A DNA stretch of 64,000 nt from Octopus vulgaris (Eukaryota), in the NCBI GenBank assembly GCA_951406725.2, contig OX597836.1:45756001-45820000 (forward strand). Direction: 5' to 3'. This document shows, one piece after another, positions 53,681 to 61,854 of the stretch. The notes under the pieces were generated by a model that saw only the letters and a list, made by a program, of their open reading frames with translations, did no database searches and was not told the DNA's origin. Position 1 is the first letter of the stretch. Every line of letters starts with the position of its first letter. The position numbers and the translations under genes are program-made.

Positions 53681-53869
53681 AAAAATCCATGGATGGATGG
53701 ATTAAAGGAATGGATATAGACAGATAGAGAGAGGGAGAGAGAAAGAGAGAGAGAGAGACAGACAGACAAAGAGAGAGACAGATAGATAGATAGTTAGTAA
53801 AAAGATAAAAGAGTTCTTCTTAAATGATAAGGCTGGAAAGATATCAAGACGGTGAGGAATAGGCGGCAT

Positions 53870-54400
53870 TTTCCAATTGTTTAAAATATATTTATACATA
53901 TGCATGCAGTGACTGAACATTTCTGACCTAGAGTTCAATAGAGAGTTAGGGATCTTAGATCTGAACAGGATCTGCGCCCTTTCAGCCAAACAAAGCCTAC
54001 ATTTCCTCGATCAATTCACATAAGGTATGGATTTCTCAATTACTTTCCATTTAATAATATGCGGTGTTTCGTTATCTTTCAAAGTCCATACGTAGCTAGC
54101 CAACTTAGTAAGCATTACTTTTGTCCGTGATGGACATAGCGATTTTAAAATTTACTTTCACATAATCCAAACAATCCTATATAGGTCTTCTTATCAGTTC
54201 TAATATTCTTTGGGGCTGCAGTAACTTCTGCCTCGTATATGATAGCTTTAATTATACATCGTTGGTCAAGTGGACAGGATCCTGGGTCGCGACAGTTGTA
54301 ACTGGATTTAGGCTATTGGTATTGACCACGTGTAATGATGCTCTTCATTTAGGGTAACAGGTATATGATAATTTCACAGAACGTCTATTAAATATTTTCC
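53870..54400 (-). pseudogene. Penelope-like element GIY-YIG endonuclease domain
   Basis: KIFNRRSVKLSYTC; NCRDPGSCPLDQRC; AIIYEAEV...TYIGL; TKLASYVWTLK...IKWKVI; CRLCLAERAQI...LLNSRSEMFSHCMH. Contains frameshifts and stops. Confidence 0.88.
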
Positions 54401-54879
54401 TATATCTATGAGTTGTGGAAAGTGTTCGCCTTGGAGAAACAAGAATATTTTACCTATGTTAGTTTTTATATTAAAGGAAAATGCAGGGGCGAAACAATTA
54501 ATTTTCCTTGGCATATTTTTAGCTTTCTTATTATTATTCTGTTGTCGTTTTCCGTTTTCCGTTCTTTACTTTCTGCGTTTTCTATATGCTGTCTTCGCAG
54601 TTTTTCGCGTTTCTTCTATTATTCAATTTTTTTAGTTCGTTATGATATGTGGTTTGCGTCTAAAGAATATGTTTGAGTTTTCTCAACATATAAAATTATT
54701 TGAAGCGCTTTAATACATGTATTGAGCCCATTAAGTAATATATATATAAAGAAACACTCTGTCGGTTAGGACGACGCGGGTCCCAGCTGATACGATCAAC
54801 AGAACAGTTTGCTCGTAAAATTAACGTGCAAGTGGCTGAGCACATCAGCACATCTGAGTATGCTTGATCCTCACGAAGA

Positions 54880-55720
54880 CAACGAGTTCAGAAAAGCACA
54901 TTTTGATTTAGTCTCTTTCAAAGTATTCGCCTTGGGAGTCTACACACTTCTGTTAGCGTTCCTGTCACTGCTGGAAAACATTTCTGGAAATCACTTTTTG
55001 TGTTGCTGTTTAGCTGAGCGGTCGAATTTTGTTTAATGTCCTCTGTTGACTCTAATCTCCCTTTCAGTGTTTTTTTGAGCTTTGGGAATAACTAAAAGTC
55101 ACACGGAGTCACGTTTTGGGAGTAGGAAGCCTGGCGAACAAGTGGTGTGGTTTGCTTGACGAGTAATGCTTGGACGATGTGGACGGAATGAGCGGTTGCG
55201 TTGTCATGGTGGAGTTTCTAGTTCTTTGCTTCACACAGATCGGGTCGTTTTCCGCCGCACAGCTTCACGAAGGCGACGAAGAACCTTTGCAATCATTTCG
55301 TCGTTTCTGCTAGTCAATGGTCTACTACAACGTGGTTCACTGTCCACTGAGGTGCGGCCATCTTTCAATCGGTTGTACCACTCCTTTATTTGTGTTTATC
55401 CCATAGCACCATCTCCAGAGGCCTTCTGAATATTCTCGATGGCCTGGGCTTGCGTATCACCAAGTGTTCGTCAGAATTTGATACAGTATCTCTGCTCAAT
55501 GCACTCGGTCATCTTGACTCAAAAGAAAAATCGCGCAGCACACTCTTCAAGTCTGTACTCAAAGCATCACTGCGGCGAATGGAACAACCTACAGATATGA
55601 AAATTTTTGCGCATGCTCAGGAAGGACGCGGCCACCTAATACCCATGCGAATTTTGCTCACACATTATTATTTTGTGCAAAAACAAGATCCAAAATCAAG
55701 GCCGGATACTTCTTGGCCAC
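54880..55720 (-). mobile_element. mariner-like remnant, internally deleted
   Basis: Reverse strand shows traces of HTH-region and RLPTPKRDSV-like mariner sequence. Strongly decayed. Confidence 0.5.
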
Positions 55721-56946: not shown

Positions 56947-57282
56947 GAAGGCGCATGGCTCAGTTGTTAGAGCGTCGAGCTTAGAATCGTGAGGTTGTGA
57001 GCTCGAATCCCGGACTGGGCTGCGTGTTGTGTTCTTGAGCAAAACACTTTATTTCACGTTGCTCCAGTTCACTCAGCTGTAGAAATGAGTTGCGACGTCA
57101 CTGGTGCCAAGCTGTATCGACCTTTGTCTTTCCCTTGGATAACACTGGTGGCGTGGAGAGGGGAGGCTGGTATGCATGGGCGACTGCTGGTCTTCCATAA
57201 ACAACCTTGCCCGGACTTGTGTCTAGGAGGGTAACTTTCTAGGTGCAATCCCATGGTCATTCATGACCGAAGGGGGTCTTTA
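56947..57282 (+). mobile_element. tRNA-derived SINE, family D
   Basis: tggctcagttgttagagc A-box and gagctcgaatccc B-box. The body is shared with 63815-64000(-). Confidence 0.8.
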
Positions 57283-57455
57283 TATATATACGTTAAATAT
57301 AGAGTAGTGAGGTTTTTTTTAGAAATTTCACTTCCAGTGGCCTAGCATGTATAAATAGTCAATAGACAACATATTCTCAATATAAAATAGTGTACATTTA
57401 AACACAATATATATATAAATAGAGTTAAACGTAGGTATTATTCAAGTCTTTATAC

Positions 57456-57541
57456 TTCCGACATATGTTTCGAAGAAAACATTGATATTATTCCAGAAGG
57501 TATAAAATGATGAACAACAATGCAATCTTCTCATCAGGGAA
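57456..57541 (-). ncRNA. Type I hammerhead ribozyme
   Basis: ttcc-CTGATGA-gaaga...tcttc-GAAA-catatg-TC-ggaa. Perfect core, GUC triplet, palindromic stem III. Confidence 0.87.
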
Positions 57542-58144
57542 AAAAGAGAAGCAAAATGCATCAATAAGACATTTTAACCGAATGTGATTACTGCATATAT
57601 GATGAAGGAAACGATGGTCTACATTTAGACATATCAATAAACGCAACAATACTGGGCTTAGTAAATTAATTTGGTCTCTAAATGAATATAATAAACAATT
57701 TCATTTGGAATGGAATATTCTATCTAGGTGTTTTCCTTATGATAAAGTGAGATATTTTTGTTCTCTCTGTAACGATGAACTACATTTCATCCTGTTCTCA
57801 GAGAATCCTCTTGTGAACACGTTGAAATAACGCGTTTATCGTTGCAAACATTGGCAAAAACATACCTAATTTCTACTAGTCGAAGTCTATAGAATTCGAC
57901 CTTTATCTGTCTTCTTACATTTAATTTCCATTAAATATATTTATTTCCCCGCCTTTGATCTGTATTTCTATTCACCTATCGCACTATATTTCTCCATTCT
58001 TAGTTTTTTCTCCTAATTTCTCTCTTCCTCCTTCTCTTTCTATAAATTGCCTTTGACGTTATTTCTATTAACGGTTCTCTTCATCATATATGCAGCATCA
58101 CATCCAATTAAAATATCTTATTGATGCGTTTTGTTTCTCTTTCT

Positions 58145-58231
58145 TTCCCTGATGAGAAGATTGTATCGTTTTACATCGTTAAAATTCCTTCTGGAATAAA
58201 ATCAATGTTTTCTTCGAAACATGTGTCGGAA
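58145..58231 (+). ncRNA. Type I hammerhead ribozyme
   Basis: ttcc-CTGATGA-gaaga...tcttc-GAAA-catgtg-TC-ggaa. Confidence 0.85.
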
Positions 58232-58660
58232 GAATAAAGACTTGAATGACACCTGTGTTTAACTCCATTTATTTATTTATTTATTTATGTGACATAAAAG
58301 CATTTCACTAAACTCAGGAAATTCTACCTTTATAAGTAGGCTGTTACATCCTTGGTATTTATGTGAATTTTTGCTACCCTGGTAATTATTTATTTATTTA
58401 TTTTTTTCGGTGTTATTTGTACACATTGAAAAATACACATACATTTATATGTGTGTGTGTGTGTTTGTCTCCGTACCATCGCTTAACAACTGATGGCAAT
58501 GTGTTTACGTTCCCGTAACGTAGTGGTTCGGCAAAAGCTACTGGTAGAATAAGTACTAGGGTAGATTTCTGCGATTAAATCCCTTTAAGGCGATGCTCCT
58601 GCATGGCCGCAGTCAAATGACTGAAACATGCTAAAGAGTAAAAGAATATGTATATATATA

Positions 58661-59619: not shown

Positions 59620-60422
59620 TGTAATAAATAAAATATATGCATACATACATACATACATATATGTACGTACCTACATCTACATGTATATATACATGCATAT
59701 ATAAATATATATACGTGAGTACAGGACACCACAAGTAGACGTAGAACTCAACGAGAAACAAAAACGGAAAAAACAAGTGTGGAACGCACCATTTTTTTTA
59801 CAACGAAAAACAGAGCACAAGACAAACTACACAAGGAAAAATACCCTTCATCAGCTGTCCCTAGTTCAACTTCAGCGTGTTTCGAAGGTAGGAAAGAACA
59901 CGACTCTCCTGCGAAGAAATTAAATAAAATTACTTCGCAGAGGGGTAAAAACAAAGAAAGAAAAAAATGTAACAAAAACAGGACGTAAAAACGATACAAA
60001 TAAAATTACAAAATAAAATACAAAATAAAATAAAATACAAAATAAAAATACAATTACAAAAAATTACAATACGAGAAATAAAAACAAAACAAGAAAACAA
60101 ACGAAAGGCCTATTTTGGGCCTAGACGAGGAAGATTGTGGAGAGCGCAAGGTAAAACCGTGTGTTTACAGTTGGAATGCCGCATGTAAAAAGGAAGAGTT
60201 GGCTGGCTGTGAGAGAGATGAGGAGGAGTGAGAGAGAGAGATAGAGGAAGACAAGCGGCTGAGAGAGAGATGAGGAGGAGTGAGAGAGAGAGAGATAGGG
60301 AAAAAAGGGAAGGTAAAGCAAAGTGGTATAGGGTTTCGCGTCATAATTATATATAAAAACAGTACTTGGAGAAGAAGAACGAAACGAAACGAACGAATCG
60401 AATCGAATCGACGCGAGGGCGC

Positions 60423-60453
<31 letters not shown>

Positions 60454-60749
60454 AAATATTGTGTATGTAATTTCCTTGTAAGGGATTTTTTTTTATAAAG
60501 ACCCGGATATCAACTGGTGTTATCAAATATATTAAAAGAAAGTTCCGCAATATATATATGGATAAACTGACCAATAATGTGTAAAGTTAATAAAAGAAAA
60601 TTATGTTTTTTTTACCCCCCTCAAAAATCTATTTCATCTCTCAATTTGTCTCCAATACCCTTAAAAGCCCATAATATCCCATATAATTAAACACTACTTT
60701 AAGTCCCTTAACACTTATATGAATAGTTTTCAAATACATTATAGTATTT

Positions 60750-61010
60750 ACTTGTCGATTTCTTTGGACTTCGAGCAATCCTTTCGTGAATGATCTGAGA
60801 AATTTCCAGTGTTCGAATTGTAGGGTTTCTTTGTTTTGGGGTGTTGCGCACTGACCCCGTAGCGTGCCACTCCTTAACCAATATTTATATCGTTCTCTTT
60901 GCTGCTAAGCCTTTACCCAGAAACCTGACTTCAAAAATTTCATCCTTCTGCTTAACAGAACCTCTTCTCCCATACGCTTTCGCTGTCTCTATTCTTTCCG
61001 CTCTTGAGTA
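60750..61010 (-). pseudogene. Tc1/mariner N-terminal HTH remnant
   Basis: YSRAERIE...TI*ILVKEWHATGSVRN...TIRT...RSPKKST. Confidence 0.6.
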
Positions 61011-61854
61011 CGTGATATAAAAGCATTTCACTAAACTCAGGAAATTCTACCTTTATAAGTAGGCTGTTACATCCTTGGTACTTATGTGAAATTTGCTACC
61101 CTGGTAACTATTTATTTATTTATTTTTTTCGGTGTTATTTGTACACATTGAAAAATACACATACATTAATATGTGTGTGTGTGAGAGTTTGTCTTCCTAC
61201 AATTACTTAACTGATGGTAGTGAGTTTACGTTCCCGTAACGTAGTGGTTCGGCAAAAGCTACTGGTAGAATAAGTACTAGGCTCACAAAGAATAAGTACT
61301 AGGGTAGATTTCTGCGATTAAAAACCCTTAGAAAAGTCTAGAGATGTTCACTCAATGCAATCTTACAAGCAACTAATGTGGTGAGGATAACGCAGGGTGA
61401 GGATGCGGTGAGGATAAATTCAGAAAATAGTCGACCAGTGCGCCTTCTTTGTTCAGCAGTTTACAAGCGTTTGAAACAACGCAATGACACTTGCGAAGGA
61501 AGGGCTGTATGCTTTTCCGGGTATGTTAATATATTTCTGTATTAAAAATATGCAGCGGAACCCGGGCTAATTTTTCGTGCGCCAACCTTTACATATATCT
61601 GAAGAGTTGACACTTACGAGGAGTGCCGAAATAATACTGATACGATGTGTTACTACAGTCGTAGTATTGTGCATTAAAACGTGTTGCTCACTCCATTCGC
61701 TTTGTTAATACTTATGTAAACTCAACAGTTATTTACGGATTTCCAGACGTATCTTCCGTTATATGATCAATTTCCGCTGTAAAATCGTGTCTGACACCCG
61801 ATATCCGTAGGCTACAAGATTAATACTCAATTCGAATTTTTATGTGTGAGTGAA

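Follow-up and report, generated by a model that had tools for sequence, protein, structure and literature searches.

A decayed head-to-head insertion of a putative Hydra-clade Penelope-like element with two hammerhead cores in Octopus vulgaris

The window analysed here is a stretch of 64,000 nucleotides of the Octopus vulgaris genome (assembly GCA_951406725.2, contig OX597836.1, positions 45,756,001 to 45,820,000 of the forward strand), and all positions below are counted from its first letter. The setting is AT-rich, microsatellite-rich eukaryotic DNA, with interspersed repeats that we take to resemble octopus SINEs and with decayed minus-strand frames (55000-55560 and 60640-61000) that presumably resemble Tc1/mariner transposase remnants. 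The element under study is a compact unit of 0.87 kb with inverted ends (Table 1). BLASTN aligns its arms, 57406-57607 and 58281-58079, with 86.3% identity over 204 nt (E 1e-62). A global alignment contains 178 identical columns out of 211 (K2P 0.156), the differences comprising 17 transitions, 12 transversions and 4 gap columns, and overall arm-arm identity is 84-86% (57407-57617 on the minus strand against 58068-58281 on the plus strand). The layout proposed in the initial annotation, inverted arms with intact hammerhead cores around the C-terminal remnant of a GIY-YIG endonuclease, is confirmed by BLASTN, a descriptor scan and phmmer.

Table 1. Features of the element, with the basis for each assignment
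Feature	Position	Strand	Basis
Inverted, 5'-truncated second copy of the element 3' end (pLTR-like left arm)	57407..57617	-	BLASTN match and contig matches
(TA)n tract, left boundary	57408..57417	none	sequence; usual Hydra target type (available text of PMC8557442)
Left-arm type I hammerhead	57455..57542	-	descriptor scan, folds
Head-to-head junction of both 5'-truncated copies	57617..57618	none	contig loose ends and homolog alignment starts
Hydra-type GIY-YIG endonuclease C-terminal remnant	57618..57869	+	phmmer relatives, profile score 107 bits
Pyrimidine-rich 3' UTR, forward copy only	57870..58067	+	sequence; covered by family contigs
Right arm, forward copy 3' end	58068..58281	+	arm alignments
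Right-arm type I hammerhead	58144..58232	+	descriptor scan, folds
(TTTA)n tract, right boundary	58268..58288	none	sequence, flank mapping

An element end at 58440 had been claimed, but the real end lies at about 58281-58288, because a separate repeat, with 92% likeness to 61009-61281, occupies 58286-58560; the segment 58286-58440 belongs to that repeat and is ruled out as part of the element. The left flank is also a cut repeat (57320-57406, like 22086-22176). No target-site duplication or empty site could be made out at the element boundaries by flank mapping. The TA-rich tracts at both ends match the (TA)n targeting of Hydra-clade Penelope-like elements (PLEs), a match of little weight in a window so rich in microsatellites. 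The pair 58286-58560 and 61009-61281 is a local duplication that begins exactly at the 3' boundary of the element and looks younger than the arm divergence. The right flank matches its duplicate more closely than one arm matches the other and may thus have arrived later. Separately, the repeat at 57320-57406 recurs at 22018-22176 and 3135-3509, adjoins both hammerhead pairs of the window and terminates in (TA)n; within 2994-3548 it forms an inverted pair of its own (73%). The repeat might represent the 3' end of a further PLE with TA targets.

The descriptor scan finds 4 hammerhead cores in the window, one pair at 57460/58227 and another at 3691/3743, versus a mean of 0.01 cores per window in 100 block-wise dinucleotide shuffles, which rules out chance as their source. 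Each arm hammerhead has a GUC triplet, 5-bp stems I and II, and helices in type I order. In the left arm, CUGAUGA lies at 57537-57531, helix II at 57530-57472, GAAA at 57471-57468 and C17 at 57460, with a palindromic stem III. The same parts of the right arm, which is sense to the endonuclease frame, are found at 58149-58155, 58156-58215, 58216-58219 and 58227. The cores are 612 nt apart on opposite strands. The cut predicted after 58227 was placed correctly, at the right-arm C17, cleavage itself being a prediction from the sequence. As first noticed, the pairwise alignment shows no arm difference in the core or in stems I and II; stem III has one. The arms were also said to differ in the stem II loop and the flanks, and differences are indeed found there, but the "loop" is no plain loop and can extend helix II.

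This long helix II is the sole feature outside the range sampled among relatives. From CUGANGA to GAAA the span measures 59-60 nt, versus 12-30 nt in 42 relatives' hammerheads, and it folds into an extended helix at -12.0 kcal/mol in the left arm and less well, at -7.9 kcal/mol, in the right. Rfam returned no match at gathering score in the whole window, and its 7 sub-threshold matches by E-value in 57300-58500 include no hammerhead. Stem III consists of 2-3 bp with a self-complementary loop, and its dimer duplex is predicted at -7.0 kcal/mol (left) and -6.0 kcal/mol (right). A cis dimer between both cores is ruled out, since they lie on opposite strands and cannot pair through stem III within one transcript. 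When the hammerhead fold is imposed, it lies above the minimum-energy fold by 7.9 (right) and 4.2 (left) kcal/mol; the arms folded freely do not form the hammerhead, and their folds are not more stable than those of shuffled sequences (z -0.07 and -1.01). The arm-arm duplex is predicted at -246.6 kcal/mol. According to these models, the arm-arm duplex is the likelier structure for a read-through RNA, and hammerhead activity at the 57407-58281 locus appears unlikely.

The other pair, at 3538-3896, is likewise a head-to-head pair of type I hammerheads, with cores at 3691 (minus) and 3743 (plus), a UA triplet, a palindromic stem III, a near-palindromic junction, (TA)n on both sides and no coding sequence. 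Its arms are identical at 165 of 168 positions, in keeping with arms that are alike at the outset, and it represents a different, younger family. At 59854 (within 59820-59890, minus) another CUGAUGA follows a GAAA, so that the order is permuted; a helix II is possible, but the candidate lacks a valid cleavage triplet and failed the hammerhead descriptor.

Between the arms, the last 84 codons of the endonuclease survive, with CxxC at 57759-57770, E at 57777-57779, N at 57816-57818 and CxH at 57843-57851. The frame contains a single in-frame stop, 57828-57830, which the initial annotation did not mention. The GIY-YIG motifs and RT are absent from the remnant, and no RT match is present in the 64-kb window; the lack of RT at the locus is attributed to 5' truncation. 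A full phmmer scan with the peptide of 57618-57869 yields 554 relatives at E<=0.001 (best 2e-17), with homolog alignments that begin at 57618. Among the best 150 of the 554, CxxC..E is present in 136, the whole CxxC..E..N..CxH in 95, Y[IVL]G in 76, and CxCx5C in 19, many of them partial. One relative is named from Argonauta hians. Another, P0145, is a 690-aa RT-EN protein with 42% identity to the remnant over 65 aa. It contains RLRWR, ADKT, YRDD, a CxCx4C linker and YVG and groups with GIY-YIG/HTH_animal clusters; searches with it returned no Pfam family and no solved-structure match. The peptide thus matches PLE-type endonucleases, as had been predicted, and these 554 relatives, P0145 included, support the proposed tie of the hammerheads to an endonuclease of Penelope-like type.

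Other protein searches were less informative. Pfam gave weak GIY-YIG matches, under the curated cut-off, for 3 of 12 relatives, and no family for the remnant or for a second remnant at 53860-54540. A word-index search of the remnant against longer proteins produced 8 candidates, none significant, and a protein-atlas search with it produced hypothetical clusters and one GIY-YIG lead at 0.88. The remnant also matches, by eye, the Hydra rows of the alignment in the PMC8557442 supplement. Viral or bacterial origin is ruled out by the lack of matches and by the eukaryotic, repeat-rich context. The second remnant (53860-54540, minus) is a longer, decayed one of Hydra type, with a CxCx5C linker, YIG, CxxC..E..N..CxH, stops and frameshifts; it is 27% identical to the remnant at 57618-57869, appears by eye closer to Hydra-1_Obim, and has no hammerhead behind it that the descriptor could find.

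To place the locus within its family, contigs of four sequencing runs were aligned to 57250-58450 at 80% likeness. The contigs matched numbered 3934, 5473, 3101 and 4191, counts that include the flanking repeats. Among the sequencing runs listed as containing the sequence, none is of RNA. The arms and the endonuclease bins are all deeply covered, consistent with an interspersed multicopy family, and the family is high-copy. Contigs with loose ends before 57618 (27 in run X1 and 37 in X2) extend the endonuclease frame upstream, through a conserved R and H, indicating that the forward copy was truncated exactly there. Family contigs also match the left arm from 57407 up to 57617. Together, these two observations indicate that a shorter inverted copy lies head to head with the forward copy. 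The family contigs listed are 10-19% different from the copy at 57407-58281, a range equal to the arm-arm divergence.

An alignment of 14 relatives, used to scan metagenome contigs, gave a wider set: 77 loci were kept from 519 confirmed matches, and these fall into 46 groups when merged at 90% identity across 300 nt. A sense hammerhead lies at most 700 nt after the endonuclease in 33 of the 52 loci whose downstream DNA reaches 500 nt or more, and in 23 of 33 groups once near-identical loci are merged. On the opposite strand it was found in 0 of 52, and shuffles gave 0. RT is present upstream of the endonuclease in 27 of the 43 loci with at least 1200 nt upstream, 16 of these 27 having the hammerhead as well. 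A bracketing inverted match occurs in 5 of the 77 loci, among contigs of which many are short and in which inverted structures assemble badly. The full layout is seen only in L006 (300-1134), which has a 97% inverted, 5'-truncated copy reaching into the endonuclease and, upstream, an antisense hammerhead at 364. No relatives were found in viral contigs, and a family-specific 22-base pattern had 0 matches in the metagenome contigs.

The closest known group is the Hydra clade of PLEs, which is marked by RWK, DKT, a CxCx5C linker, and CxxC and CxH around E and N (Craig et al. 2021, PMC8557442). Its members, such as Penelope-13_HM, Hydra-1_Amil and Hydra-1_Obim, also have a canonical hammerhead and (TA)n targets and no CCHH, according to the available text of that paper. 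The remnant has CxxC and CxH around E and N as in this definition, the parts that would hold RWK, DKT and the linker having been lost by truncation, and its sequence supports assignment of the element to the EN+ PLEs (C-terminal GIY-YIG), narrowed to the Hydra clade. However, the Hydra hammerhead motifs listed in the available text of PMC8557442 have loops of 3-10 nt, unlike the helix II seen here, and the hammerhead listed there for Hydra-1_Obim differs in sequence from the present one, which, together with the long helix II, makes this a different family. The hammerheads themselves agree with the minimal type of PLEs in their common type I order, short helix I, G10.1-C11.1 pair and short palindromic helix III, and the core spacing falls within the 100-700 bp reported for dual PLE hammerheads on opposite strands (Cervera and de la Pena 2014, PMC4209133, as far as its available text goes).

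A head-to-head inverted layout is already published for PLEs, including a Hydra family. In Adineta vaga, 5'-truncated Penelope copies carry inverted pLTRs head to head, for which self-priming has been proposed, and some copies have in-frame stops and lack a target-site duplication (Arkhipova et al. 2013, PMC3846280, in the parts available). Unlike the inverted junctions there, which are often palindromic, the one at 57617/57618 is not, and the clade differs. The same description of truncated PLE copies with an inverted layout is given in the accessible part of PMC8969392. Thus, 57407-58281 is a real but ordinary decayed insertion of a Hydra-clade PLE, and a new family member.

The insertion is probably an old and dead one, made by a high-copy Hydra-clade PLE in a single event from near-identical templates and followed by decay. 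The mechanism is drawn from known PLE biology and set beside an anatomy, homology, truncation point, copy number and decay that were observed. An intact element elsewhere would supply RT-EN protein in trans, and this protein would cut TA-rich DNA. cDNA synthesis would then start from the 3' region of the element RNA, either at each of the two broken DNA ends or a single time followed by fold-back. Both cDNA products would end early and join at their 5' ends to give head-to-head copies. The arms, derived from the same RNA or the same subfamily, would have been near-identical at insertion and would then have drifted neutrally about 15% apart. To judge from the literature, the hammerhead would have been functional in the parent element, in 3' processing of precursor RNA, and probably dimeric through its palindromic stem III; at the present locus it would be without selection. 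A PLE protein from an anole, for which a dimer is predicted, cuts both DNA strands in vitro and extends them, and insertion in that study did not require hammerhead cleavage (PMC11167929, available text).

The initial annotation instead suggested that the arms came from two related templates under functional constraint, or that the core is conserved, and proposed a comparison of substitution density inside and outside the core. The raw deficit it foresaw is reproduced: the core and stems I and II contain 0 arm differences in 33 positions versus 33 in 178 elsewhere (Fisher p=0.002), the deficit persists when ragged ends are trimmed (p=0.005), and for the stems alone, conditioned on the cores that drew notice, p=0.035. 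This raw deficit counts against pure neutral decay and favors an integration that copied two RNA templates of diverged subfamilies whose hammerheads were under selection while active. Such an event would also suit a dimeric RT-EN engaging two RNAs, as might the predicted dimer of the anole protein (PMC11167929, available text), and 10 of the 33 arm differences fall inside the 50-nt interior of helix II. However, the locus was chosen for its two intact cores, and the significance is lost in recounts that take in family-majority letters, wider pairing and selection for intact cores (p=0.10, 0.35 and 0.39), all of them post hoc, hand-tallied and based on the 40 variant rows listed out of 214.

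The letters that distinguish the arms also argue against diverged subfamilies. Of the 29 arm substitutions, the variants listed (40 of 214) allow 12 to be polarised; each time the family-majority letter stands in one arm and a minority letter in the other (4 left, 8 right). The minority letters mostly account for 1-16% of depth in X1 and are therefore rare rather than common subfamily letters. Several of the changes weaken paired parts. At 57542 the majority letter makes a Watson-Crick pair in stem I and the left arm now has G-U; minority letters at 58164 and 58167 weaken the extended helix II, and one at 57501 weakens the inner hairpin; the single stem III difference, at 58223, breaks a perfect palindrome. 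In addition, a one-base length difference at 58147 points to an insertion in the right-arm stem I, supported by only 27-62% of depth. Together with the G-U at 57542, it suggests that the identity of stem I may be a coincidence of alignment. Conversely, both arms have family-rare letters in common at 57446/58241 (about 2%), 57485/58202 (10%) and 57558/58127 (16%), with the variant row listed for one arm only at two of the three sites, and the stop at 57828, in the endonuclease frame, is private, 98% of X1 depth reading otherwise. The polarised and the shared rare letters suit a single insertion that later decayed better than they suit two templates under constraint, and one insertion with decay explains the pattern at least as well. 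An origin from two such templates is therefore unlikely, and it is also doubtful, a little more so, that the arms record one integration copying two different RNAs of a Hydra-clade family with a 59-60 nt helix II.

Two independent insertions in opposite orientation, joined later by deletion or recombination, would fit the flanks, each a cut fragment of a different repeat (57320-57406 and 58286-58560), and the lack of a visible target-site duplication. This origin is improbable: a head-to-head 5' junction is a described PLE product, TA-rich targets mask duplications, and rare letters are common to both arms. A self-standing non-autonomous element, MITE- or retrozyme-like, or a host-kept ribozyme or hairpin-RNA locus is most improbable, for although the unit is compact, with inverted ends and intact cores, and PLE-derived non-autonomous hammerhead elements have been described, family contigs at 57618 run into upstream endonuclease rather than into the left arm, none of the contig pieces listed spans the 57617/57618 junction, and known retrozymes are head-to-tail tandems and not inverted (bioRxiv 10.64898/2026.07.22.740005, in its available text). 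According to the same source, non-LTR retrozymes consist of head-to-tail tandem hammerhead units without coding sequence, their hammerheads likewise being of type I and related to PLE pLTRs; identity with them was rejected, as the present cores are inverted around a coding remnant.

How the inverted structures of PLEs form is posed as an open question in the discussion of PMC8557442, as far as its text is available. If the arms did come from two templates, they would be genomic evidence for two-template, two-ended priming in PLE transposition and, with the long helix II, for a new long-helix ribozyme variant. A single decayed copy cannot separate one template from two, but comparing the arm pairs of this high-copy family across the genome could. 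No description of the present long-helix family was found in the literature searched, mostly open-access papers. The insertion analysed here, which probably goes back to one event with near-identical templates, adds one PLE family, by its sequence of the Hydra clade, whose hammerhead Rfam misses.
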